From NCBI GenBank assembly GCA_964621335.1, contig CAZULX010000442.1, forward strand, positions 1-28,508: 28,508 nucleotides of DNA, read 5' to 3'. The stretch comes from an uncultured Streptomycetaceae bacterium (GTDB lineage Bacteria > Pseudomonadota > Gammaproteobacteria > Burkholderiales > SG8-41). Both the position numbers and the translations under genes were made by a program. Below the pieces are notes generated by a model. It was not told the DNA's origin, ran no database searches, and saw only the letters and a program-made list of their open reading frames with translations. Shown piece by piece: positions 1 through 28,508 of this stretch (the first letter of the stretch is position 1; every line of letters starts with the position of its first letter).

Positions 1-188
1 CGGCCGGGCTGCGTCAGTTCGACCTTGCGGCGCGTCCGGTTGAAGAGCGCCGTGCCCAGTTCCGCCTCCAGACCGCGGATCACCTGGCTCAGGGGCGGCT
101 GCGACATGTGCAGCCGCTACGCGGCGCGGCGAAAGCTCAGCTCCTCGGCCACGGCGACGAACTGCCGCAATTGGCGCAGGTCGATCAT
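1..188 (-). pseudogene. LysR-family transcriptional regulator, N-terminal HTH part (runs off window), in-frame TAG at codon 24
   Basis: Manual translation from ATG at 188: [61 protein letters not shown], a textbook LysR HTH. The stop codon is cta at 117-119 on the + strand. Confidence 0.9.
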
Positions 189-200
189 CGTCAGATACTA

Positions 201-1024
201 GGGCGTGTTAACAATCAAGCCAGCCACACGTAGGTGGTGGCAAGGTTGAGCATCGATAAGAAGTTCCGTGCAAGCTTTTCATAGCGAGTGGCGATGCGTC
301 GAAATTGCTTGAGACGATTGAACAGGCACTCGATGAGATGGCGTTCGCGGTAGGCATGGCGGTCATGGGCACGTTGAGCAAGGCGGTTCTTTCGGGAGGG
401 GATCACCGCCTGTGCGCCGGCGGCTTCGATGACAGCGATAAATGCATCGGAGTCATAACCTTTGTCTGCAATGACCTGTTCAGCGTCGATGCCGTCAATG
501 AGCGCAGGACCTTGTGTGATGTCATGTACTTCGCCGCCCGTCAAATGCCAACGCACAGGATTACCCAGCGCGTCGTTGGCCATATGAATCTTGGTGCTCA
601 ATCCCCCGCGCGAGCGCCCGATCGCTTGTGCGCCTTCTTTTTTTGGGCGCCGGCGGCATGCTGGTGGACGCGAACGATGGTGCTGTCCAGCATGAGTGAC
701 TGCAGATCAGCATCCGTGCCTACCGCTTCGACAACACGCTGCCACACGCCTGTCTTGCCCCAGCGCGAGAAGCGCGTCTACACGTTATGCCAGTTGCCCA
801 ACGACGGGGGAAGATCGCGCCACGGACTGCCGGTGCGCGCAATCCATAAAACGGCCTCTACGAATAGCCGGTTATCCTTCGCCGTGACGCCGCAGTCGCT
901 GGCTTTGCCCGGCAGCAGGTGCTCGATGCGTTCCCATTGGTCATTTCGCAGAACCTTTCGCATTGGCGCTGGCCTTTCCGGAAAGACCAGAATGTACCGA
1001 CATCGACCGATTGTGTACAGGCCC
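201..1024 (-). mobile_element. IS5-family insertion sequence (IS427-group-like), 824 bp
   Basis: Imperfect 16-bp terminal inverted repeats GGGCGTGTTAACAATC (201-216) and reverse complement of 1009-1024 GGGCCTGTACACAATC (13/16 identical). TA on both flanks (199-200, 1025-1026). Two-ORF DDE transposase inside. Confidence 0.88.
215..963 (-). pseudogene. IS5-family transposase (orfA/orfB joined by -1 frameshift), orfA broken by a premature TAG
   Basis: orfA: [18 protein letters not shown]...[11 protein letters not shown]...NWHNV*TRFSRWGKTGVW...LDSTIVRVHQHAAGAQKK, with TAG at 778-780 where homologues have Tyr. orfB frame: EGAQAIGRSRGGLSTKIH...ADKGYDSD...YRERHLIECLFNRLKQFRRIATRYEK. Slippery A-AAA-AAG at 637-643 links the two frames. 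Confidence 0.9.
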
Positions 1025-1028
1025 TAAT

Positions 1029-1541
1029 TCACCGTAGCAGCTTTGAGAGCGCGGCGAGCTCCGCCAGTGCGCCTTTCGCCGCGCGCTCGAGCGACTGTGC
1101 TGCCTGTTCCCCCTGTTCCTGATCTTCCTTGAAGCCATTTAGAGCTTCCTCCGCCTGCTCCTTCAGCTCGGCGTCGGACTCCAGGATCCGCCTTACCGCG
1201 GCTGTTTTGAGTACCGCAGCGACTTCGGCATCTGCGGCCGAACCCGCATCGTTGGCATTTTTCAGCTTCGCGGCTGCGGCCTCAAAACCGCTGCGCACAA
1301 GCTGCTGAAATTCGCCGACCACATCGTTCGCCATGGGGTCCGAAGCCGAAAGCTTGAAGCTCGTGGTCTCCGGCACGAGCAGCACTGTGCCGGGCGTAAG
1401 CTTTTTCAGGTCCACGTGCGGATTAAGCTTCTGCAACGAGTCAATGGCCGTTGCCGCTTTGTCTTCGGAGACGCGCTTCACCAGCAGCTGGTCTCTCAAC
1501 GTTTCGAGATTAGTGTCCTGTTTGATGACGAGCATGCGCAC
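1029..1541 (-). CDS. Hypothetical protein, N-terminal LysM-like motif plus helical/coiled-coil C-terminus; last eCIS operon gene
   Basis: 170-aa ORF, purine-rich RBS (AGGAGA) upstream. LQKLNPHVDLKKLTPGTVLLVP resembles the LysM core. C-terminal half is Ala/Glu/Lys-rich and helical. Confidence 0.7.
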   Translation of the reverse strand: MRMLVIKQDTNLETLRDQLLVKRVSEDKAATAIDSLQKLNPHVDLKKLTPGTVLLVPETTSFKLSASDPMANDVVGEFQQLVRSGFEAAAAKLKNANDAGSAADAEVAAVLKTAAVRRILESDAELKEQAEEALNGFKEDQEQGEQAAQSLERAAKGALAELAALSKLLR

Positions 1542-1572
1542 GGTTCATTCTCCTCGTTGAACGGCTCCACCC

Positions 1573-4500
1573 TCACGCGTGCAGATTCAAAGCATCCCAC
1601 GGCGGCTGAAGCCCGCCCGGAACGCTGATGCTGCCGGTCGTGATGTTACCGAGCACTGCAGCCGATTTCGTCCCGAGCACCTGTATCGAAAGGTCGCCGC
1701 CGCGCACGCGGTTGGCGCTCACGATCGCCACTGTGGTCGACAGTATGACGGCGATACTGGTGTTCGCCTGCGAGTCCACTTGATTATCGTTGAAGAGACA
1801 CTCGCCGGCCGCCGAAACCTGCGCGACCATGCCGCCGCGCGCGTTCAGCACGTTGCCAATCACGGAGCCGCGCGCCTGATCGATTCCGTCAGCAGCCGCG
1901 GCGACAGCTAGGCTCGCAACGTACGCGCGGCCGCCGCCCATTACGAGCACGCGGGTATTGTCCACGCGCAGCGTCGTGAGATTGCCGATACGCGCCAGGG
2001 GATTCCTCGGGTCGATATCGGCGGCGATCAATGCCAGCCGCGTGCCACCGACGGGCTGCGTAGAAGCTGACGTATCGCGCTCCACATGATTGTGGCTCAC
2101 CTCAAACTGCCTGAAAGGCGCGCGAAGCAGGATTCCCGCCACGACGCCTCCAAAATCACGCGGCGGCGCAATCTCGGTGACTTCGTTGCCACTCACGTGT
2201 GCTCGCATGACGCCCAGCGTGTGGATACCAGCGCAGAACGCGCCCAGTCTTGTCTGAGCACCGACGGTGCGGACGGTATTGCCGCGGATCGTCGCGGTAT
2301 CCGCGCGCCTAACGCCGATCGCGGCGACGGCCGTGTTGCGGCCTTCCACACTCGGCCCGATGTTTCGCAGATGATTGTTCTCGATGGAAACCGACGCCGC
2401 GCGCGCATTCTCGGTCGATACGATGCCGTTGCCGCAGTCTTCGACGATGTTCGACTTGACGATCAGCTCGCGGGTCGGTGCAGCGATCACGATACCGCCC
2501 TGCGAAAATCCGATCACCTGGTTCGACAGCACGTGGCACTGATCCGGACCGTTCCTGTCGAGGCCGCTCGCGACGGTAATTCCCGCAGTGGGCGGCGTGT
2601 CCGCTTGTTGCTCACGGGCGGAATTGACAAGCTTGTTGCCTTCCACCCACAGACCATCGACCCCACACCGGAAACCGCTGCCGGTAATATTGAACTGATT
2701 GCGGCTGACCCGCATCGATGAACCCGGAGCGCCCATGCCCAGCGCGCTCACAGCGAAGTCAGCGCAGCCGAATGCTTCGTTGCTGTCGATGCGCGTGCTC
2801 AGCATGTGCAGCACGTTGCCCGCAAGATTGATCCCCTGACGTCGGCACCAGAATGCGTTCCGTTCGATCGTGAGCGACGCTGCGAGCAGAAACCCTGCCG
2901 CAGATGCGTCGCCGCCCGGCGGGACTGCCACAGGATCGTTCGCCAGTACTCCGAAAGGCCCGATGATGAAGTTCTCCCGGATGGCCGCATCGGCTACCAC
3001 GCCTTCGAGCGAGATCGCCGCGCCGCGAGCGTCCTCACTGCCGAGCACGGCGAGCACCAGTTGCTTCAGCTCAAGGCCCAGTGCCGTGCGCACTGTTACA
3101 GCGGATTGGCGACCGAGTGATACGACGGAGAGGTTCTCCACCGCAACCGCCACACAGGCTTGCAACACAAACACGCCGCCCGGGCCTACGACAACGGTCG
3201 CCGGCCCCTGACCGCGTATGCGAACGGATCGGGTGTTCACGAGCCGCACCGGCTCACGCAGTGCGTACTGGCCACCGCCGAGACAAACGGTGCCGCCGTT
3301 CTCACGCACCTGATTCACCGCGTCCTGTATGGTGAACCGCCCGCTCGCGTGCGACTCGGCAGTGACGCACGCGGTGCAGCTGCAGTCTTGTCCTTCGACG
3401 CGTGGCGGCCATGGATGCCGGCAATCGGTTACCGTGCGCGCGCCCACATCCCAGAATCCGAGTCGTTCGTAATGGTGGTAAATGCCGCGCGGCGGCTCGT
3501 CGACGAGCGCTTCGACTGACGCATCCGCGGTGCGTGCGGCGAACACCCAGTGATCGCCGGCGCTGAATCCTTTGGCGCCGGCCGATGCGAAACGCACCGT
3601 TACCCCATTTTCGAGGATGAGTGTGGTGCCTGTCGGCGGCACATTGATCACGCCCCGCGTCCCCGTGGCGTCGAGGTCCTGGAACACCGAGGTCGCGCCG
3701 CCCGCGCCGGTCTGCAACACCTTGCGCTTTTGATCCCAGCGTCGAACGCGCAGGTTGCGGCTCGCCGGAAAGTCGTTGTCCGGGAATGCGCCGGGGAGCA
3801 TGTCGGCCGGCAGCGCACCATCGAACGTGATGCGCCGCACACCTTCCTTCACCGTGATCTGTCGCATCTCGCCGGCGCGCTGCGAGAGCTCCCGCACGTC
3901 GTCGGTGATCTCGACCCAGTCGCCGCTGTTCAAGCGCAGCACATCGTCACGGCCGAGCGTCTGCAGCTCGAGCTCGTTGCCTGAGATCATGCTGGCGATG
4001 CGGCTGCCGATGCTCGCGTTCTCGCGAGACCATTTAAATGTCGCGGTGCCGCCAGGCTGTCCGGGATCGTGGATCTCGACGCGATACGTCTGATTCTCCA
4101 AACCCCGATAGCCCCCGGTCGGGGGCAGCTCGCACGGATCCTCTTCGGGCGGCACCTCGAAGGTGCCCGTGGTGAGGCGTCCTGTGGACTGCGCGATCAG
4201 CTCCGCCCAGCCTTCGATGTCTTCATCATCCGCCTCGCACGTTGCGCTTCCCGCATCCGTATCGAGCACGCGCACCTGCCATACGGTCTGCAGGCGTGAG
4301 CTCGTCTCGACGCCGACCGCGAGTTCCACGAGACCGGGACGTTCGAGATGAGTGACTTCTCGCTGCCACACGTCGAGGTAGACGAGGTGTCTGCCGGCTT
4401 CGGGCAAAGGCGGCGGGACTGGCAAGTACGGCTGTGCGCCGTAGGCGATTGCATCGGCGAAGCTCACTTCCGCAAGGAGCGGGTCGAAGAGTTTCTTCGC

Positions 4501-4791
4501 CGGGTCCGTGGAGGAAGCGCCGTGGTTGTCGGCGAGTAAACCATCGACGTAGAGCCGCCCTTTTGCGATGGAAAGCGTCCCCGCCGCTACGCCGATCTTG
4601 AAGGCCTCCGGAGTCGTCGAGGGCACCGTGCTGCGGCCGAGAACGTCCGCGGCGAGCGCGCGCAGGCGTCGGTCCGTCAGCGCGACGTGCTCGTTGAAAT
4701 CGGAGTCGAGGACGACGCCGCCCTGCTTCAACTCGACGCCGGCGTAGTCGAGCAGTGGATTGACGCGGATTCTTGAAATGTCGGCACCCAT
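1573..4791 (-). CDS. DUF6519-domain protein with C-terminal right-handed parallel beta-helix (tail fibre/tailspike-like)
   Basis: N-terminus MGADISRIRVNPLLDYAGVELKQGGVVLDSDFNE, LYVDGLLADN, VYLDVWQREVT, YRGLENQTYRVEIH and FKWSRENAS match DUF6519 as recalled. C-terminal ~590 aa has repeated I.I..N.I / V..N.V beta-helix rungs. Confidence 0.8.
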   Translation of the reverse strand: MGADISRIRVNPLLDYAGVELKQGGVVLDSDFNEHVALTDRRLRALAADVLGRSTVPSTTPEAFKIGVAAGTLSIAKGRLYVDGLLADNHGASSTDPAKKLFDPLLAEVSFADAIAYGAQPYLPVPPPLPEAGRHLVYLDVWQREVTHLERPGLVELAVGVETSSRLQTVWQVRVLDTDAGSATCEADDEDIEGWAELIAQSTGRLTTGTFEVPPEEDPCELPPTGGYRGLENQTYRVEIHDPGQPGGTATFKWSRENASIGSRIASMISGNELELQTLGRDDVLRLNSGDWVEITDDVRELSQRAGEMRQITVKEGVRRITFDGALPADMLPGAFPDNDFPASRNLRVRRWDQKRKVLQTGAGGATSVFQDLDATGTRGVINVPPTGTTLILENGVTVRFASAGAKGFSAGDHWVFAARTADASVEALVDEPPRGIYHHYERLGFWDVGARTVTDCRHPWPPRVEGQDCSCTACVTAESHASGRFTIQDAVNQVRENGGTVCLGGGQYALREPVRLVNTRSVRIRGQGPATVVVGPGGVFVLQACVAVAVENLSVVSLGRQSAVTVRTALGLELKQLVLAVLGSEDARGAAISLEGVVADAAIRENFIIGPFGVLANDPVAVPPGGDASAAGFLLAASLTIERNAFWCRRQGINLAGNVLHMLSTRIDSNEAFGCADFAVSALGMGAPGSSMRVSRNQFNITGSGFRCGVDGLWVEGNKLVNSAREQQADTPPTAGITVASGLDRNGPDQCHVLSNQVIGFSQGGIVIAAPTRELIVKSNIVEDCGNGIVSTENARAASVSIENNHLRNIGPSVEGRNTAVAAIGVRRADTATIRGNTVRTVGAQTRLGAFCAGIHTLGVMRAHVSGNEVTEIAPPRDFGGVVAGILLRAPFRQFEVSHNHVERDTSASTQPVGGTRLALIAADIDPRNPLARIGNLTTLRVDNTRVLVMGGGRAYVASLAVAAAADGIDQARGSVIGNVLNARGGMVAQVSAAGECLFNDNQVDSQANTSIAVILSTTVAIVSANRVRGGDLSIQVLGTKSAAVLGNITTGSISVPGGLQPPWDALNLHA

Positions 4792-4810
4792 AATGTTCCC
4801 CGCTCTTCTC

Positions 4811-6979
4811 TTAGCTCGCGTAAAAGAGGCCCGCGTGCAGCCCGAACCGCAAGTATTCGTCCAGCCGGAGGCGCAGATTGGCTTCGCGCTGCGGCTGGGC
4901 GAGCGCGTGCATCACCCCGATCTCTCCACCGTCGTCGGCGCCTTCACGGACTACTTTGTGGGTCGCCGTGCGCAACTGCGCATAGCCGGGATCGCCGTAG
5001 TGCAGCGACGTGAAATGCGGCAGCGCGTCCGGGTGCCGTTCATCCGGCACGCAGCGAAAGCGCCTCGGCACGAGCGAACCTCTCGGAATGAAAGAGAAGC
5101 GCGCGCACCCGTTTTGTTTGCGCTCGATCCACACCGGCGCTTTCCACGCCGGATCGGCCGCGGCCAGTCGCGAGAAAAAAATCGTGTTGCTCGCCATGCG
5201 CATGAGGCGCACGTGCACCCTGCCGATCACCGTGCTGTCGCAGATGGAGAGCTCGGCGGCAGCCTCGCCGCCATTGATCCCTTCCAGGGCGACAGCATCA
5301 TCGGCGCCGCCATCGATGATCGACTCGATGATCCGCAGCTCGGCATCTGCGACGACGCGCAGACTGCCGACTATGCAGTGCTCGAGCGTCACGTTCGCAA
5401 AGCCATCGTTTACGATCAGGCTCGGCGCGCCCGGTGTCACCGCGCTGCCGTCGCCATTGAGCGCGAGTCCCGGCACCAGCGTGCAGTGACGCAGCACGAG
5501 CTCGCGCGGCTCGGAATCACCGCTGGCGGCGATCTCGAGCGCGCCGCCGCTGATGACAAGCCCTTCGAGGATGAGCGTGCCGCGCGTCCCGATCGCCAAG
5601 GTCATCGCTCCGCTGGCGGCAATCAGCGGCCGTGCTTCGTTGGCCGCCGTCACGACGACTTGAACGCCCGGCACTCCGTCGGCGGTAATGCCATCCACAT
5701 GAAGCGCCGGCGTTTCGCTGTACGTCCGGCTGTCTTCGATCACCAGTCGGCCGCCGCCTGCGATCGCATCGAAGTGCGGCTGCAGCGCTTCGCTGCCGCG
5801 TGCCACGCGCTGCGTCGCAAGCGCGCCGCCACTCAAACTGCGCTCGTACTCGCCGCCGCCAATAGGTCGCGAATACCCGTAGTGATAAGTCCCGAAAAAC
5901 GGATTGGACATGTGCTCTGCGGCGCGGGCGCTTCCGAGCACGACACGACCACGCTCCGGATCGATCAGGATGTCCTCGGCGAGTGCGCTCGCTTCATGCG
6001 CCCAGCCGCTGACGACGCCGCCGGAGACCAGCACGTCGCGCAGATCGGCAATGCGCATTTCAGGACTTGCGGGCGACGGCGGATCGCCGGCTGGCACCGC
6101 TGGACCCGGCCGATTGATCGGCACGACGGTCCCCGCCCGCCGCAGCACCAAGCTGCGGCCCGCGCCGTAGTCCTGCGTCTCGCTCACCACGTCGGTCGTG
6201 TCGTGCGCCTTGCGAACTTGCAGCGCGAGATCGCGCACGCGTAGGCGCTCGGGAACGTTGGCAGGCTCCGCGATGTGCGAGATCACGGTTTCGCTCACCG
6301 GTAGACGGAACAGCGCCTGGTCCGCGCCAAGCGGATTGAAGCGAAACCTGCGACCCGTCGTGTCTAGCGGATCGGGAATCAGCGGTACGTTGGTGAGCGA
6401 GAACGGCTGCAGCCGCCACAAGAACAAACCAATGTTGCGAATGTTGTAACGACCCGATCCGGCTTCGGGACGTCGCATCTCGGGCGTGTGGGCTGTGCGA
6501 TTGAAAGGGCCCCCGGCGTGCAGCATATCGGGCGCGGATCGAATGTTTGCGGTTCCCAAAGAGTGCAGCCGCGGATGGTTCATGTACTGTGTCACCGCGA
6601 GCTGCTCGAAGAACTCCACGGCGCGCGGGGGCCATTCCGTGACGTCTCGCGCCAGCTGCTCGAGCATGGCCGCCGTGCCTTTGCGCCGGCGATACGCGAT
6701 CGTATTCGCCACTTCCGCGCGCGGCGATGCGACGCGGGCGGTGACGCCGTGGAGCGGCCGATAGCCGATGAGGTCGCCGATATACGGCGCGACCCATTCG
6801 GCGCACGTCTCGATGAACTGGTCGTCGTAGAGCTGCTCGATGTTTTCTTCGAGCGCCTGGAATTCCTTTGCGATGAGCGCGAGGAGGGCACGCAAAGGTT
6901 CGCCTTGCGCCGCGTCGCGGATGCGGTAGACCGACGGCAGCAGTCGGTACAGTGCTTCGGCGTCCAGGCTCGCGCTCAT
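4811..6979 (-). CDS. Baseplate wedge / P2 tail protein I-like protein with beta-helix-like C-terminal region
   Basis: LYRLLPSVYRIRDA...LYDDQFIETCAEWVAPYIGDLIG...RRKGTAAMLE is typical of eCIS phage-tail (Tail_P2_I-like) proteins. Ends LRLRLDEYLRFGLHAGLFYAS. ATGA overlap with upstream gene. Confidence 0.75.
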   Translation of the reverse strand: MSASLDAEALYRLLPSVYRIRDAAQGEPLRALLALIAKEFQALEENIEQLYDDQFIETCAEWVAPYIGDLIGYRPLHGVTARVASPRAEVANTIAYRRRKGTAAMLEQLARDVTEWPPRAVEFFEQLAVTQYMNHPRLHSLGTANIRSAPDMLHAGGPFNRTAHTPEMRRPEAGSGRYNIRNIGLFLWRLQPFSLTNVPLIPDPLDTTGRRFRFNPLGADQALFRLPVSETVISHIAEPANVPERLRVRDLALQVRKAHDTTDVVSETQDYGAGRSLVLRRAGTVVPINRPGPAVPAGDPPSPASPEMRIADLRDVLVSGGVVSGWAHEASALAEDILIDPERGRVVLGSARAAEHMSNPFFGTYHYGYSRPIGGGEYERSLSGGALATQRVARGSEALQPHFDAIAGGGRLVIEDSRTYSETPALHVDGITADGVPGVQVVVTAANEARPLIAASGAMTLAIGTRGTLILEGLVISGGALEIAASGDSEPRELVLRHCTLVPGLALNGDGSAVTPGAPSLIVNDGFANVTLEHCIVGSLRVVADAELRIIESIIDGGADDAVALEGINGGEAAAELSICDSTVIGRVHVRLMRMASNTIFFSRLAAADPAWKAPVWIERKQNGCARFSFIPRGSLVPRRFRCVPDERHPDALPHFTSLHYGDPGYAQLRTATHKVVREGADDGGEIGVMHALAQPQREANLRLRLDEYLRFGLHAGLFYAS

Positions 6980-24740: not shown

Positions 24741-26336
24741 TTACGTGGGGATGTTCCCCGCGATCTGCTGCATCTTGATCACCACGAACTCGGCCGGCTT
24801 GAGCGGCGCGAAACCCACGACGATGTTCACGATGCCGAGATTGATGTCGGTCTGCGTCGTCGTCTCGCGATCGCATTTCACGAAATACGCCTCCCGCGGG
24901 GATGTGCCCTGGAACGCGCCCTGGCGGAAGAGGTTCTGGAGAAAAGCGCCGATGTTCAGCCGGATCTGTGCCCACAGCGGCTCGTCGTTCGGCTCGAACA
25001 CGACCCATTGCGTCCCGCGGTAGAGGCTCTCCTCCAGAAACAGCGCCATTCGCCGCACCGCGAGGTACTTCCATTCGCTTGCGAGGCTGTCGGCGCCTTT
25101 TAACGTGCGTGCGCCCCACACGACAGGCCCGGTGTTCGGGAAGTTGCGCAGGCAGTTGACGCCAAGCTGGTTGATCGCACCGTTCTCGAGATCGGTGAGA
25201 TTCACGTCGAGGCCCAGCACTCCGGTCAGAGTGGCGTCCACTCCCGCAGGCGATTTCCACACACCCCGCGCTGCATCGGTGCGGGCGAATACACCGGCTA
25301 CGGCGCCGGCGGGCGCCCACGATTCAGGCCGGTTCTCGTTCAGCGGATTCGCCGCGCGGATTCGCGGAAAGAACAGCGCCGCGTTTTCGCTCCGCGAAGC
25401 CAAGCTGGTGATCGCGTTCGTGGCAGTGACATCGGACATTTCATCCCAGCCGCTTGTGTTGAACGGCGGATCCACAAGCACCATCGCCCGGCGCTCTTTC
25501 GCATACGCGACCGCAGCGTCCCACGTGGTCTTGTCGACATCGGCAGTCGGGGAGAACGGCGAGATGCAAAGCAGGTTGAAGAGATCGGCTTTCTCCAGCG
25601 CAAAAAGGCCTTTCTTCGCGGCGCGCAGCCCCGGGTCCGAGATCTGGGTTGCGTCCACTGGGCTGCCGTTGTCGGCGTCGGTGGAGACGCTGGTCGCGCT
25701 GGGCTGGTCGAACGGGTCGGGCGCGGTCGAGGGCGCAGCCGCATTGGGCGTCGGCAGCCCGCTCAGTGTGGCCGTCGGCCCGCGCAGCAGCTTGCTGCTC
25801 TGCTTCAGCACTTCGCCCACGAAGCGCGGCTGGCCTTGAGTAATCGAAACGTTCAGGTGGGTTTCAGTGACACCGGTGGCGAGATCCTTCACGCGCAGGT
25901 TGAACAACGTGTTGGCTGGATGCAGCGCGGCCACTGCCGGATCGATGTCGGTATCGATGCGCAAGCGCAAGCGAGCAGCCCACGCGCCGGGGTTCGCCGC
26001 CGTGAACGTCGCGTTGCCGCCGCCCGCGAGCCCTACACTGGCCGTGCCCGGCTTCGCACCGTCGTGCACGCGCACGATCAATGCGTCGGATCCGCCGTTC
26101 AAAAAGTAGTGGTAGACGGCGAACGACATCGGGCTTTCGGCCCATAACCCTCCGAAGATGCGCTCGTACTCGGCGAAGCTGAAAATGCGTACCGGATTTT
26201 TCTCGTCCTCGTCGGCGGGGCCGCGCAGGGCGCGACCCACGAATGCCGTGATCGAAGTCCCCACGCCGGTGATCGTGCGCACGCCGCTCGGAATTTCTTC
26301 GATATAGACGCCGGGGTAGGAAAGGGCAACTGGCAT
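24741..26336 (-). CDS. Contractile phage tail sheath protein (Afp2/3/4-type)
   Basis: YPGVYIEEIPSGVRTITGVGTSITAFVG, GVWKSPAG, VVWGARTL, WKYLAVRR, WVVFEPNDEPLWAQIR, FAPLKPAEFVVI. Confidence 0.96.
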   Translation of the reverse strand: MPVALSYPGVYIEEIPSGVRTITGVGTSITAFVGRALRGPADEDEKNPVRIFSFAEYERIFGGLWAESPMSFAVYHYFLNGGSDALIVRVHDGAKPGTASVGLAGGGNATFTAANPGAWAARLRLRIDTDIDPAVAALHPANTLFNLRVKDLATGVTETHLNVSITQGQPRFVGEVLKQSSKLLRGPTATLSGLPTPNAAAPSTAPDPFDQPSATSVSTDADNGSPVDATQISDPGLRAAKKGLFALEKADLFNLLCISPFSPTADVDKTTWDAAVAYAKERRAMVLVDPPFNTSGWDEMSDVTATNAITSLASRSENAALFFPRIRAANPLNENRPESWAPAGAVAGVFARTDAARGVWKSPAGVDATLTGVLGLDVNLTDLENGAINQLGVNCLRNFPNTGPVVWGARTLKGADSLASEWKYLAVRRMALFLEESLYRGTQWVVFEPNDEPLWAQIRLNIGAFLQNLFRQGAFQGTSPREAYFVKCDRETTTQTDINLGIVNIVVGFAPLKPAEFVVIKMQQIAGNIPT

Positions 26337-26401
26337 CGCTCAAGCTCCTGGTCAGTTAGTAGTCCCGGGCTTCACGCAGCACGGACGAATTCCGCGCGTG
26401 C

Positions 26402-26653
26402 TCATGACCTGACGTCTTTCTTCCTGCGCTCGTAAATGACCGTCCCGTCGCGCAGCGTGTATCGCGCGACGTTTCCCCGCTCGATCAGCCGTTCCATCGC
26501 ACAGCGGACATCGCTCAGCCACTGCGCGTCGGCGTTTCCCGACAGCCACCATGTTGCGACTCCTTCCAGTGTGTCGGCAGCATTCGGATGCTTGTTCAGA
26601 TAGTCGCGAATCGTCTCCGCGAGCGCGTCAATACGCGCGTCGTCAGCATCCAT
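26402..26653 (-). CDS. Small winged helix-turn-helix protein; first gene of the operon
   Basis: Start ATG 26653 with AGGAGG RBS (83 aa). IRDYLNKHPNAADTLEGVATWWL...VRCAMERLIERGNVARYTLRDGTVIY. Confidence 0.75.
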   Translation of the reverse strand: MDADDARIDALAETIRDYLNKHPNAADTLEGVATWWLSGNADAQWLSDVRCAMERLIERGNVARYTLRDGTVIYERRKKDVRS

Positions 26654-26700
26654 GCTCCTCCTGATGAGAAGACGATGAGCCGCTCGTGCGCGAGCCTTGC

Positions 26701-26716
26701 GCAAGAGTCGTGCCGG
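26701..26716 (-). promoter_or_regulatory. Sigma-54 (-24/-12) promoter for the eCIS operon
   Basis: Minus strand CCGGCACGACTCTTGC, i.e. GG-N10-GC, close to the consensus TGGCACG-N4-TTGC. 48 bp upstream of the wHTH start codon and next to a bEBP gene. Confidence 0.88.
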
Positions 26717-26820: not shown

Positions 26821-26840
26821 GTGGGTCGGTGATGACCCAC
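26821..26840. promoter_or_regulatory. Palindrome, candidate upstream activator sequence 2
   Basis: GTGGGTC-N6-GACCCAC with perfect 7-bp arms. Same GGGT-N8-ACCC core as site 1, 45 bp away, centred about -142. Confidence 0.6.
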
Positions 26841-26852
26841 GTTCGCGAGACG

Positions 26853-27857
26853 CTAAGGCTGCCCCGCATGGGCGTCTTTGATCAGCCCGTGTTTCTTCAT
26901 GAGCTTGCCGAACGCTCGCCGCTCTTTTCCGCTCGAACGAGCCGCAGCAGAAACGTTGCCTCCCGCTTCGAGCAGCGCGCGCTGTATGAAAGAGCGTTCG
27001 AACTCCCGGACGGCGGCTGCTTTTGCACGCTGGAAATCCTGCTCATCGTGCTTCGTGTATGAAGGCAAATGCACGCTCGACCGTTCCGTAACTGCGGAAA
27101 GCGACGGCTGCACGAGTTCAACCGCTGTCCGTCCCTGGCTCTGCACCACTGCCCGGTGCACCAGGTTTTCCAGCTCACGCACGTTTCCGGGCCACGCATA
27201 GCCTCGCATCCAGGCAAGATCCGTGTCTGTAAGACGCTGCTCTTTCAACTGGTACTGCCTGCCGTAAATGCGCAGGAAATGATGGGCGAGCAGCTCTGCG
27301 TCGCCAGGACGCTCACGCAATGCGGGCAGCGAAAGCGAAAGTATGTTCAGCCGATAGAACAAGTCGGCACGGAACTGCTTCTGCGCCACGCTCTGTTCGA
27401 GTCTAGCGTTCGTGGCGGCGATGACTCGCACGTCCGCGACTTGGTCGCGTGCCGCGCCCAGAGGGCGATAGCGAAAGTCCTGCAGAAAACGCAGGAGCGC
27501 GACCTGACCTCGTGGCGGGAGCGCATCGACCTCGTCGAGAAAAAGCGTGCCGCCTTGCGCCTGCGCGATGAGGCCCTGCTGCGGTCCTCGCGCATCCGTG
27601 TAAGCGCCGCGGAGATGACCGAAGAATTCGTTCTCGATTAGGCTTTCGGGCAACGCGCCGCAGTTCGCGGGGATGAACGGCATCGCGCTGCGCGCGCCGT
27701 AGTAGTGCATCGCCCGCGCGACGAGCTCCTTCCCCGTTCCGGTTTCACCTTCAACCAGCACCGGCGCGTCGGTGCGAGCGATTGCTGTAACCTGGGAGAG
27801 AACTTCGCGAAATCGCGGCGCTTCGCCAACGAGCTTGGCGGCAGGATCGAACTCCAT
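26853..27857 (-). CDS. Sigma-54-dependent enhancer-binding protein (AAA+ plus Fis HTH) lacking an N-terminal sensor domain
   Basis: GETGTGKE, NCGALPESLIENEFFGH, GAYTDA loop, GGTLFLDEV, FRADLFYRL, WPGNVRELEN, GNVSAAAR HTH. AGGAGG RBS before ATG 27857. Confidence 0.95.
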   Translation of the reverse strand: MEFDPAAKLVGEAPRFREVLSQVTAIARTDAPVLVEGETGTGKELVARAMHYYGARSAMPFIPANCGALPESLIENEFFGHLRGAYTDARGPQQGLIAQAQGGTLFLDEVDALPPRGQVALLRFLQDFRYRPLGAARDQVADVRVIAATNARLEQSVAQKQFRADLFYRLNILSLSLPALRERPGDAELLAHHFLRIYGRQYQLKEQRLTDTDLAWMRGYAWPGNVRELENLVHRAVVQSQGRTAVELVQPSLSAVTERSSVHLPSYTKHDEQDFQRAKAAAVREFERSFIQRALLEAGGNVSAAARSSGKERRAFGKLMKKHGLIKDAHAGQP

Positions 27858-27979: not shown

Positions 27980-28009
27980 ACTATAAAGAAGGATAACCGA
28001 GAGCGTCAA
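27980..28009 (-). promoter_or_regulatory. Candidate sigma-70 promoter for the bEBP gene
   Basis: TTGACG (28009-28004), N18, TATAGT (27985-27980); each box 5/6 to consensus. Confidence 0.55.
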
Positions 28010-28363: not shown

Positions 28364-28508
28364 CTACCGTTCCGGGGCGATCAGATCCGGCGCATTATTT
28401 TTCGGCGTGTTGACGCGCGTGCTCACCGGATAGCACTGAAGCATCTCGACAGGCGGCGGCTTTAGCAGGTCCTTCGGATCATCCGCCTCCAGCCACGTCC
28501 GATAGTCG
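28364..28508 (-). CDS. SOS response-associated peptidase (SRAP/YedK family), C-terminal fragment
   Basis: Manual translation DYRTWLEADDPKDLLKPPPVEMLQCYPVSTRVNTPKNNAPDLIAPER*. WL...LL.P...YPVS.RVN.P.NN is the SRAP C-terminal signature. Not in the ORF track because it is partial. Confidence 0.75.
   Translation of the reverse strand, partial: DYRTWLEADDPKDLLKPPPVEMLQCYPVSTRVNTPKNNAPDLIAPER

Follow-up and report, generated by a model that had tools for sequence, protein, structure and literature searches.

Which kind of contractile injection system (CIS) is encoded on contig CAZULX010000442.1, and does it represent a new one? This contig of 28,508 bp and about 65% G+C (the whole stretch analyzed here, referred to as the window) carries a long gene cluster for a contractile tail-like particle. 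An earlier note on this DNA had described it as a complete single-operon extracellular CIS (eCIS) with a noncanonical architecture and had proposed an uncharacterized subtype. Our analysis supports the assignment to the eCIS class (Afp/PVC/MAC type), as opposed to a prophage or a canonical type VI secretion system (T6SS), based on the tail module, the eCIS markers found with Pfam, and a sequence profile of the hub. The claim of a new subtype was not supported. A soil or sediment bacterium is the source of what is likely a complete, probably functional CIS of eCIS lineage II, with a gene content matching that of subtype IIa.

Gene content and lineage of the locus

All credible genes of the window are located on the minus strand. 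After refinement of start codons, the cluster runs from position 26653 to 1029 and consists of 22 genes, with a largest gap of 65 nt and 4-nt overlaps at twelve junctions. Inside the cluster, the coding strand has no sigma-70-like promoter, and matches resembling terminators did not exceed the expectation from shuffled sequences. This packing is consistent with a single transcription unit. Open reading frames (ORFs) on the plus strand were dismissed as chance, as long antisense ORFs are typical of DNA with 65% G+C and none of those tested had a family match. The genes for particle components and their conserved companions are, in order of transcription (family matches with E values in parentheses):

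24741-26336, minus strand: single sheath protein, 531 aa, Afp2-4/Cis2 equivalent (Phage_sheath_1, 1e-10; Phage_sheath_1C, 1e-9)
24178-24702, minus strand: inner tube protein, gp19/Afp1/Cis1 (Phage_T4_gp19, 8e-47)
23447-24181, minus strand: 244-aa CxxC protein, probable zinc ribbon (T4_baseplate, weak at 2.6e-4 and below the cutoff)
22737-23450, minus strand: 237-aa low-complexity protein rich in Pro, Ala, and Arg (gene model; no family match)
21403-22740, minus strand: tail terminator or cap, Afp16/Pvc16, DUF4255, 445 aa, TTG start codon (Pvc16_N, 4.4e-50)
19445-21406, minus strand: Afp15-type AAA+ ATPase with an N-terminal winged-helix domain, 653 aa (AAA, 1.2e-25; WHD, 8.7e-12)
14917-15582, minus strand: CIS_tube, second tube-fold protein, Afp5/Afp7-like tube initiator, 221 aa (CIS_tube, 3e-8)
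14530-14877, minus strand: LysM-like baseplate protein, Afp7 C-terminal/gpX-like, 115 aa (PHROG "baseplate wedge subunit," 0.003)
13394-14533, minus strand: baseplate hub, gp27-like N-terminal half of a split VgrG/Afp8, 379 aa (28-sequence profile against the PDB)
12885-13397, minus strand: spike, gp5 OB-fold half of the split VgrG, 170 aa (Phage_base_V, 5.5e-21)
12562-12879, minus strand: probable PAAR-like tip, 105 aa (ORF by translation; PAAR_motif, weak at 0.026 and below the cutoff)
12188-12550, minus strand: gp25/Afp9 baseplate wedge protein, 120 aa (GPW_gp25, 5.8e-15)
9627-12191, minus strand: Baseplate J/Afp11 copy 1, 854 aa (Baseplate_J, 2.8e-8)
6976-9630, minus strand: Baseplate J/Afp11 copy 2, 884 aa (Baseplate_J, 1.4e-4)
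4811-6979, minus strand: baseplate-periphery protein in the Afp12 position, 722 aa, central beta-helix (conserved; weak N-terminal matches)
1573-4791, minus strand: tail fiber or receptor-binding protein with a DUF6519 (eBAP5) anchor and a right-handed beta-helix, 1,072 aa (DUF6519, 6.7e-40; Beta_helix, 9e-8)
1029-1541, minus strand: last gene of the operon, 170 aa, with a LysM-like N terminus and a coiled-coil-like C terminus (no family match)

The cluster thus holds a contractile tail module composed of sheath, gp19-type tube, gp25, Baseplate_J (Afp11), and a VgrG-like hub and spike, together with all of the eCIS-specific markers detected by Pfam, namely the Afp16/DUF4255 cap, the Afp15 AAA+ ATPase, and the DUF4157 core domain. 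Sheath, tube, spike, gp25, baseplate J, DUF4255, and AAA+ ATPase, as named in the earlier note, were all confirmed by Pfam and the hub by the 28-sequence profile. Family scans of the window's large ORFs revealed no capsid, portal, terminase, lysis, TssJLM, or ClpV domains. The same absences extend to the 10 kb around related loci, again as previously read for the window, and these flanks contain housekeeping genes (Tat, SelA/SelB, Mfd, IspD/F, and others).

In phmmer searches against the PDB, the sheath matched over its full length the Cis2 proteins of Streptomyces coelicolor (8bky, 4.5e-74) and Halogeometricum borinquense (9ezm, 1e-69). Structures of subtypes IId, IId, and IIa scored 253, 244, and 239 bits, as against at most 160 bits for lineage I, whose sheaths (Pvc2, Afp2-4, tCIS, and AlgoCIS) match over the C-terminal third of the protein only; these scores group the locus with lineage II and do not separate the subtypes. 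More than 8,000 sheath homologues were found, the nearest being 86% identical.

Sheath, tube, gp25, gp6-like, gp27/gp5, and fiber genes are also common to phage tails, and a fragment of an insertion sequence (IS) lies beside the locus. The cluster could therefore be read as a tailocin (an R-pyocin-like bacteriocin) or as the tail module of a decayed myovirus prophage, without delivery of cargo. We consider this very improbable. DUF4255/Pvc16_N, the Afp15-type ATPase, and DUF4157 are all present, lysis, head, portal, and terminase genes are missing here and within 10 kb in relatives, and a scan of viral contigs with the second Baseplate_J copy found no relative. Sheath identity is 50 to 86% in CIS-type loci versus 27% for the best phage sheath among 50,697 phage records. 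The prophage or tailocin reading was rejected because of the eCIS markers, the lack of lysis genes, and the distance of the phage sheaths. Since head genes are lacking, phage sheaths are distant, and the flanks are housekeeping genes, the locus does not cluster with prophages, and it is also not near-identical to a characterized system, the best solved sheaths being the two Cis2 proteins above; on both points, the earlier expectation was borne out.

Gene order was compared across 80 metagenome loci from a sheath-profile search and six further loci. The conserved order begins with sheath, tube, CxxC protein, low-complexity protein, cap, ATPase, a small ORF, and one or more DUF4157 proteins and continues with CIS_tube, LysM-like protein, hub, spike, PAAR-like protein, gp25, the two baseplate J copies, the 722-aa protein, the DUF6519 fiber, and a small terminal gene. 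This layout recurs in dozens of metagenome loci, in metagenome-assembled genomes (MAGs) labeled Rokubacteria or belonging to Betaproteobacteria, and in cultured bacteria, where large replicons of Cupriavidus sp. P-10, Ensifer adhaerens, and Rhizobium leguminosarum carry it. Named sources of homologues include Comamonadaceae, Rhizobacter, and Polaromonas, and several metagenomes from soil and sediment contain near-identical sequence. An exact look-up of the window's sheath in the assembly index had no match.

Among named genomes, the best-matching locus (L004/L085, CAVVJF010000009.1; sheath 78% identical) stems from a MAG labeled Candidatus Rokubacteria, and other close matches are from Burkholderiales. 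Among the genome contigs covered by a scan with rather too specific patterns of the sheath protein, the locus of the Rokubacteria MAG was the one returned. This spread reflects either horizontal movement between phyla or an unreliable bin label.

The features that had been listed as departures from Afp/PVC are in fact published hallmarks of lineage II. According to Chen et al. (2019; PMC6899500), afp8 is split into gp27 and gp5 ORFs across subtypes IIa, IIb, and IIc, two afp11 copies occur in IIa and IIc, afp10 (PAAR) is found in IIa, IIc, and IId, and divergent afp12/afp13 are found in IIa and IIb; lineage II generally lacks afp6 and afp14, and each subtype has its own extra conserved genes. 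The window has the split afp8 and both afp11 copies. For the remaining features of IIa, the DUF6519 fiber is clear, the PAAR match is weak, and the 722-aa protein shows weak N-terminal similarity. This gene content points to subtype IIa, a label assigned by such gene-content rules. Since the lineage II rules, the eBAP5 fibers, and DUF4157 have already been published, the architecture is canonical for a catalogued lineage and does not define a new subtype. Most of the listed features themselves were found as described, in part with a different meaning. There is one sheath gene, but a single sheath gene is common to every relative examined. There is one gp19 gene, but CIS_tube adds a second tube-fold gene. 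Two of the three large wedge proteins are Baseplate_J proteins, while the third has only weak N-terminal similarity of the P2 gpI/Mu gp48 type. Likewise, hub and spike are separate ORFs, but this split was already described for IIa, IIb, and IIc, and the DUF6519 beta-helix protein is present but already catalogued as eBAP5 (PMC12923769).

The hub gave no match in Pfam, NCBIfam, PHROGs, or the PDB as a single sequence or as a 4-sequence profile. An exhaustive search yielded relatives in 1,589 representative clusters, and a 28-sequence profile matched the CIS VgrG of Salmonella salamae (9rce_F, 4e-14), All3320 of the Anabaena tCIS (7b5h, 6.9e-6), and the AlgoCIS (7aef_q, 8.8e-6) and Streptomyces (9gtr_q, 0.0056) proteins in the PDB. 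The region matched in these solved VgrG proteins is the N-terminal, gp27-like half. Because of this match and the adjacent Phage_base_V protein, whose ORF overlaps that of the hub by 4 nt, the split VgrG is established. The next ORF, of 105 aa, is nested inside a longer overlapping frame. An ORF of 102 to 118 aa is kept between spike and gp25 in L057, L085 to L087, L088, and L090, i.e., in every relative reaching that far. It is a probable, not a proven, PAAR-like tip; the tip named previously has a conserved position and a weak family match.

Both Baseplate_J copies are closest to S. coelicolor Cis11 (9gtp_1K; 9.6e-14 for copy 1 and 7.9e-9 for copy 2), and copy 1 also matched T4 gp6 (1e-4). 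The 722-aa protein has 6,904 homologues, none of them with a Pfam domain. Its N terminus gave weak matches to Mu gp48, P2 gpI-type, TIGR02242, and phrog_521 tail proteins, its profile found no sequence relative in the PDB, and the AlphaFold2 model (mean predicted local distance difference test score [pLDDT], 49.6) is confident only for residues ~390 to 600, which form the beta-helix. The DUF6519 fiber occupies the same position in L085 to L087 and L090. Fibers of this eBAP5 class are known from 658 eCIS genes and frequently carry C-terminal beta-helix pectin-lyase folds (PMC12923769). A small ORF (101 to 167 aa) follows the fiber gene in L085 to L087, and the copy in L087 is 43% identical to the 170-aa protein of the window. 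CIS_tube shows 40 to 83% identity among relatives, and the position of the 115-aa protein is conserved, its LysM-like label coming from a sequence pattern read by eye.

The 244-aa protein follows the tube gene directly in ~50 related loci. Four cysteines (C71, C74, C181, and C184) are invariant and form two CxxC pairs, and no credible PDB relative or family assignment was found. It is a lineage-specific core component. For the 237-aa low-complexity protein, position is conserved and sequence is not, a homologue being found only in L001/L002; it is possibly a length-determining or tape measure-like factor. The Afp16 homologue had no sequence match in the PDB with phmmer.

The cargo slot

Between the ATPase and CIS_tube genes lies a slot with the following four genes in the window:

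19197-19448, minus strand: 83-aa protein opening the slot (no family match; an ORF of 66 to 116 aa is found there in most relatives)
17059-19200, minus strand: DUF4157/eCIS_core protein, 713 aa, HELAH motif, long uncharacterized C-terminal region (eCIS_core, 1.1e-28)
16017-17021, minus strand: candidate cargo protein, 334 aa, with a disordered N terminus of ~100 aa followed by a domain of ~225 aa
15579-16001, minus strand: 140-aa protein beside the cargo gene (no family match; none in the relatives examined)

Across related loci, the slot measures 317 to 4,521 nt. It usually contains an ORF of 66 to 116 aa and, behind it, genes for one or two HExxH/DUF4157 proteins (~270 to 1,300 aa), and the number and size of the DUF4157 genes vary; in one locus, the slot is empty. 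The 334-aa and 140-aa proteins are absent from the slot in the closest complete relatives (L003, L086, and L087). Because the slot recurs across related loci, cargo in the middle of the operon is the standard design of the clade with variable content and not an insertion, as it had been called.

The link of DUF4157, an eCIS core domain, to toxins has been published (PMC8213781), and the 713-aa protein is a candidate effector or a candidate processing or loading protein for effectors. The domain of the 334-aa protein is conserved in 58 clusters and carries the invariant motif WHTxxASxxHExHHxxEW. A precomputed match to DUF4157 (PF13699) exists for 9 of the 58 clusters, and DUF4157 is fused N-terminally to the cargo domain in at least six aligned members. 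Such a fusion is the classic arrangement of eCIS-associated toxins. AlphaFold2 modeled residues 105 to 334 with a pLDDT of ~98, and a Foldseek search with this domain returned no PDB match at an E value of ≤0.001. We regard the 334-aa protein as a candidate effector, possibly with a metal-dependent activity. Its 140-aa neighbor might, as a speculation, provide immunity or act as an accessory protein.

A short acidic motif, (K/R)-x-E-A-A-F-(D/N)...D-D-x-x-K-x-E, lies just upstream of the variable linker in most of the cargo protein's homologues. The motif is present with or without DUF4157, and several homologues have glycine-zipper-like segments there instead. It could represent a packaging signal or a processing site. 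Furthermore, the C terminus of the 237-aa low-complexity protein (VVHVTIDRIDVRA) is similar to the N terminus of the 83-aa protein that follows the ATPase (NVHVRIRRLVVDG), a likeness that may reflect a shared short docking motif.

The sigma-54 module upstream of the operon

The earlier note had also proposed a dedicated sigma-54 module. This module is real and conserved in relatives, with its enhancer-binding protein encoded beyond the extent of 1029 to 26653 then given for the system. It comprises the following features:

27980-28009, minus strand: sigma-70-like promoter candidate for the enhancer-binding protein gene, TTGACG-18-TATAGT (10 of 12 consensus matches; 0.3 expected by chance in the region)
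26853-27857, minus strand: sigma-54 bacterial enhancer-binding protein (bEBP), 334 aa (Sigma54_activat, 1e-60; AAA_lid_14; HTH_8)
26821-26840, minus strand: palindrome GTGGGTC-N6-GACCCAC, candidate upstream activator site of the bEBP (read from the sequence)
26700-26715, minus strand: candidate sigma-54 promoter CGGCACGACTCTTGCG (GG-N10-GC), 47 nt upstream of the first ATG of the operon
26402-26653, minus strand: first gene of the operon, 83 aa, HPxAxDTLEGIxxWWL motif, winged-helix-like C terminus (alignment of 18 orthologues; no family match)

The bEBP consists of an AAA+ domain and a Fis-type helix-turn-helix, without an N-terminal sensory or receiver domain. Its L1 loop reads GAYTDA, which differs from the canonical GAFTGA at two positions, and the pattern GA[FY]T[GDSN]A is kept in orthologues beside related loci. 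The promoter candidate of the bEBP gene is a consensus match only. Among the 45 relatives with at least 2.5 kb of upstream sequence, a bEBP gene is located within 3.5 kb upstream of the sheath gene in 23. The 83-aa first-gene protein is present in 16 of these 23 loci and in only one of the 22 loci without a bEBP (p = 7e-6). We count the protein as part of the regulatory module.

The same association was observed for the promoter element. Of the 26 loci with a bEBP, 12 contain a site with a weighted -24/-12 score of 19 or more (maximum, 20.9), as does 1 of the 22 loci without a bEBP (Fisher p = 0.001), and no such score occurred on the reverse-strand control. The best-scoring site is found 325 to 366 nt before the sheath ATG in 11 of the 26 loci with a bEBP. 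Cupriavidus sp. P-10, whose pMTS1 locus carries the bEBP and the small gene in the same gene order, has a similar element 46 nt before the small gene. In the window, the palindrome is located ~110 nt upstream of the -24 element. In locus L003, from a Rokubacteria MAG, a TGGGTCA...TGACCC palindrome and the -24/-12 element are kept despite a mostly diverged spacer, and the palindrome at 26821 to 26840 is inferred to be the bEBP activator site.

These data also bear on the possibility that the bEBP is a mere neighbor regulating something else, with the operon under another promoter. Nearly half of the related loci (22 of 45) have no bEBP nearby, the match to CGGCACGACTCTTGCG taken by itself is within chance for the window, so that its weight is that of comparative position only, and the published enrichment of such regulators in eCIS operons is weak (see below). 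Set against this, bEBP, small gene, and -24/-12 motif co-occur at a fixed position before the first gene with differing flanks, motif and palindrome persist in L003, and no sigma-70-like promoter was found on the coding strand between the bEBP and sheath genes. We therefore regard an unrelated neighbor as rather unlikely and take transcription of the operon from the sigma-54 promoter as the working assumption.

A literature search linking sigma-54, RpoN, or enhancer-binding proteins to eCIS or CIS found no relevant paper. The supplementary tables of Geller et al. list Sigma54_activat in 49 eCIS-operon genes (odds ratio, 1.59; class "shell"), without discussion in the text, and one of their examples, Leptothrix cholodnii, has a bEBP and a small ORF before a differently ordered eCIS. 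The association of sigma-54 with eCIS is thus visible in public data but unanalyzed.

The closest metagenome relatives (L001/L002), whose sheath is 84% identical, encode a longer bEBP of 459 aa. Divergently upstream of it, at 4627 to 7530, lies the gene for a hybrid histidine kinase of 967 aa that combines PAS and GAF domains with multiple receiver domains. This suggests that some relatives may couple the sigma-54 module to a phosphorelay, unlike the window with its sensorless bEBP.

Both ends of the contig carry gene remnants. A ~500-nt gene-poor spacer separates the bEBP gene from 28364 to 28508 (minus strand), which reads by eye as the C-terminal ~47 residues of a SRAP/YedK-like SOS response-associated peptidase. 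At the other end, positions 215 to 601 (minus strand) encode a C-terminal fragment (128 aa) of an IS5 family DDE transposase (DDE_Tnp_1, 6e-17), ~430 nt past the last operon gene, and positions 602 to 1028, read in a different frame, resemble the N-terminal portion of this transposase. Such an arrangement points to an IS copy, either frameshifted or divided between two frames, that borders the operon at its 3' end. Positions 1 to 200 (minus strand) resemble, judged by eye only, the N terminus of a LysR-type regulator (MIDLRQLRQFVAVAEELSFRRAA...) that runs off the contig.

Mode of action and comparison with known systems

Taken together, the gene content suggests the following way of working. 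The bEBP would be made from its own sigma-70-type promoter and bind palindromes located a short way past the stop codon of its gene. Upon a signal, it would remodel the sigma-54 RNA polymerase at the -24/-12 promoter at 26700 to 26715. Since the bEBP lacks a sensory domain, its control is probably exerted in trans, and the coinherited 83-aa winged-helix-like protein would be the first candidate partner. A single transcript of ~25.7 kb could then supply all parts of the particle. The baseplate would comprise the gp27-like hub, the gp5-OB spike, the PAAR-like tip, gp25, the two gp6/Baseplate_J paralogues, the 722-aa protein, the CIS_tube initiator, and the LysM-like protein and carry a gp19 tube inside a single-species sheath, closed by the DUF4255 cap. 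The Afp15-type ATPase and the DUF4157 metallopeptidase-like protein might load or mature the cargo encoded in the slot, here presumably the C-terminal region of the DUF4157 protein and the 334-aa HExHH motif protein. Finally, the DUF6519 (eBAP5)/beta-helix fibers would bind a glycan on the target cell surface, and sheath contraction would drive spike and cargo in.

A released, fiber-targeted particle is probable. The large conserved beta-helix fiber, the lack of a transmembrane anchor, and the combination of Afp15, Afp16, and DUF4157 point to extracellular action. Since the characterized systems with the nearest sheaths are cytoplasmic in one case (Streptomyces) and membrane bound in the other (haloarchaeal), we can only infer that the system acts outside the cell. 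The same hardware might instead serve as a cytoplasmic CIS for stress-induced cell death or as a baseplate-anchored, contact-dependent, T6SS-like weapon, with sigma-54 control as a stress or nutrient trigger. The closest solved sheaths are exactly those of the S. coelicolor system CIS-Sc and of H. borinquense, and the Cis12/Cis13 baseplate-periphery proteins of clade IIa may contact the membrane (PMC11566945). The operon also has no holin or endolysin. No convincing transmembrane segment was found in any operon protein, however, and no anchor resembling CisA or Hbor_38620 is encoded. Moreover, the conserved 1,072-aa eBAP5 fiber is present, whereas CIS-Sc has no fibers, and a Gram-negative envelope would require a trans-envelope conduit, of which none is encoded here. 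Action without release is thus unlikely. A more far-reaching proposal, somewhat less likely still, is that this abundant soil branch of lineage II is gated by sigma-54 and, like the two nearest characterized systems, not freely released, that it fires from within its Gram-negative producer (for contact-dependent killing or regulated self-lysis), that the 83-aa protein is a new partner or anti-activator of the sensorless bEBP, and that the HExHH domain is a new enzymatic effector fold.

Several findings weigh against a complete, sigma-54-controlled, and released lineage II particle. The nearest characterized sheath relatives act inside the producer, CIS-Sc in the cytoplasm (PMC10066040) and the H. 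borinquense system bound to the membrane (PMC11566945), and a holin/endolysin cassette for release is missing from the operon. PAAR evidence is weak (E value, 0.026), the 722-aa protein shows no solid homology to Afp12, and the IIa label is limited to gene content. On the regulatory side, the loci without a bEBP and the chance-level match of the promoter motif described above count in the same direction, and none of the RNA sequencing runs contains the sheath gene. The context of the locus is incomplete because only 650 nt of contig precede the bEBP gene and a transposase fragment of the IS5 type lies at the 3' boundary. Furthermore, we know of no bacterial member with a split VgrG, two J copies, and an eBAP5 fiber that has been studied experimentally.

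The locus of the window is therefore best described as typical of its lineage, which is known, catalogued, and very abundant and makes up a large share of all soil CIS loci. It leaves the current understanding in place and adds to a part of the CIS family that is known yet unexplored. Less explored are the module of bEBP, small protein, and -24/-12 promoter found in about half of the relatives, the variable slot, and the unmatched effector domain, which provides a confidently modeled domain without a structural relative in the PDB. With a bEBP, a -24/-12 promoter, and a small partner, the switch is tractable, as overexpression of one regulator could turn the system on. The branch is tractable as well, with a defined variable cargo slot and with Cupriavidus sp. 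P-10, Ensifer adhaerens, and Rhizobium leguminosarum as cultured carriers.

Among known systems, eCIS of lineage II subtypes IIa and IIc share with the window the split Afp8, two Afp11 copies, tube, sheath, gp25, Afp15, and Afp16 (PMC6899500); they also have PAAR, to which the probable tip of the window would correspond. Lineage II likewise has no recognizable Afp6 or Afp14 and has extra lineage-specific genes, and its divergent Afp12/Afp13 may correspond to the weakly similar 722-aa protein and the DUF6519 fiber here. Its published description does not include the sigma-54 module and the small first gene. The CIS of H. borinquense ("archaeal T6SS," clade IIa; 9EZM) resembles the window in its single Cis2 sheath, two Cis11 copies, Cis12/Cis13-type periphery proteins, lack of tape measure and plug homologues, and cargo genes inside the cluster (PMC11566945). 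It differs in being archaeal, plasmid borne, and divided into two subclusters, in having no bEBP, and as a membrane-bound, contact-dependent, T6SS-like system (PMC11566945).

CIS-Sc of S. coelicolor (subtype IId; 8BKY, 9GTP) provides the best solved matches for the sheath and both Baseplate_J proteins and, like the window, has a single sheath, no typical tape measure, and no ClpV. In contrast to the split VgrG, two J copies, and large eBAP5 fiber of the window, it has a contiguous VgrG, one Cis11, and no fiber; it needs the membrane protein CisA, acts in the cytoplasm, and causes cell death (PMC10066040).

More distant are the Afp and PVC systems (subtype Ia) of Serratia and Photorhabdus. They share with the window the overall logic of a sheath-tube-baseplate-cap particle, the Afp15 ATPase, the Afp16 cap, and a fiber, and their cargo has disordered N-terminal leaders like the candidate cargo here. 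They differ in their three sheath paralogues, contiguous VgrG, single Afp11, adenovirus-like Afp13 fiber, Afp14 tape measure, toxins at the 3' end, and RfaH/LuxR-type control.

T6SS clusters with their own sigma-54 bEBP are known, e.g., with VasH in Vibrio cholerae. In this type of T6SS, which has TssJLM and ClpV, the activator encoded in the cluster acts on -24/-12 promoters before structural genes. PspF and HrpR/S are examples of bEBPs that likewise have no N-terminal domain. The window resembles the VasH-type clusters in encoding its own bEBP but differs from them in the lack of an N-terminal domain and in the pairing of this regulator with a small winged-helix-like protein.

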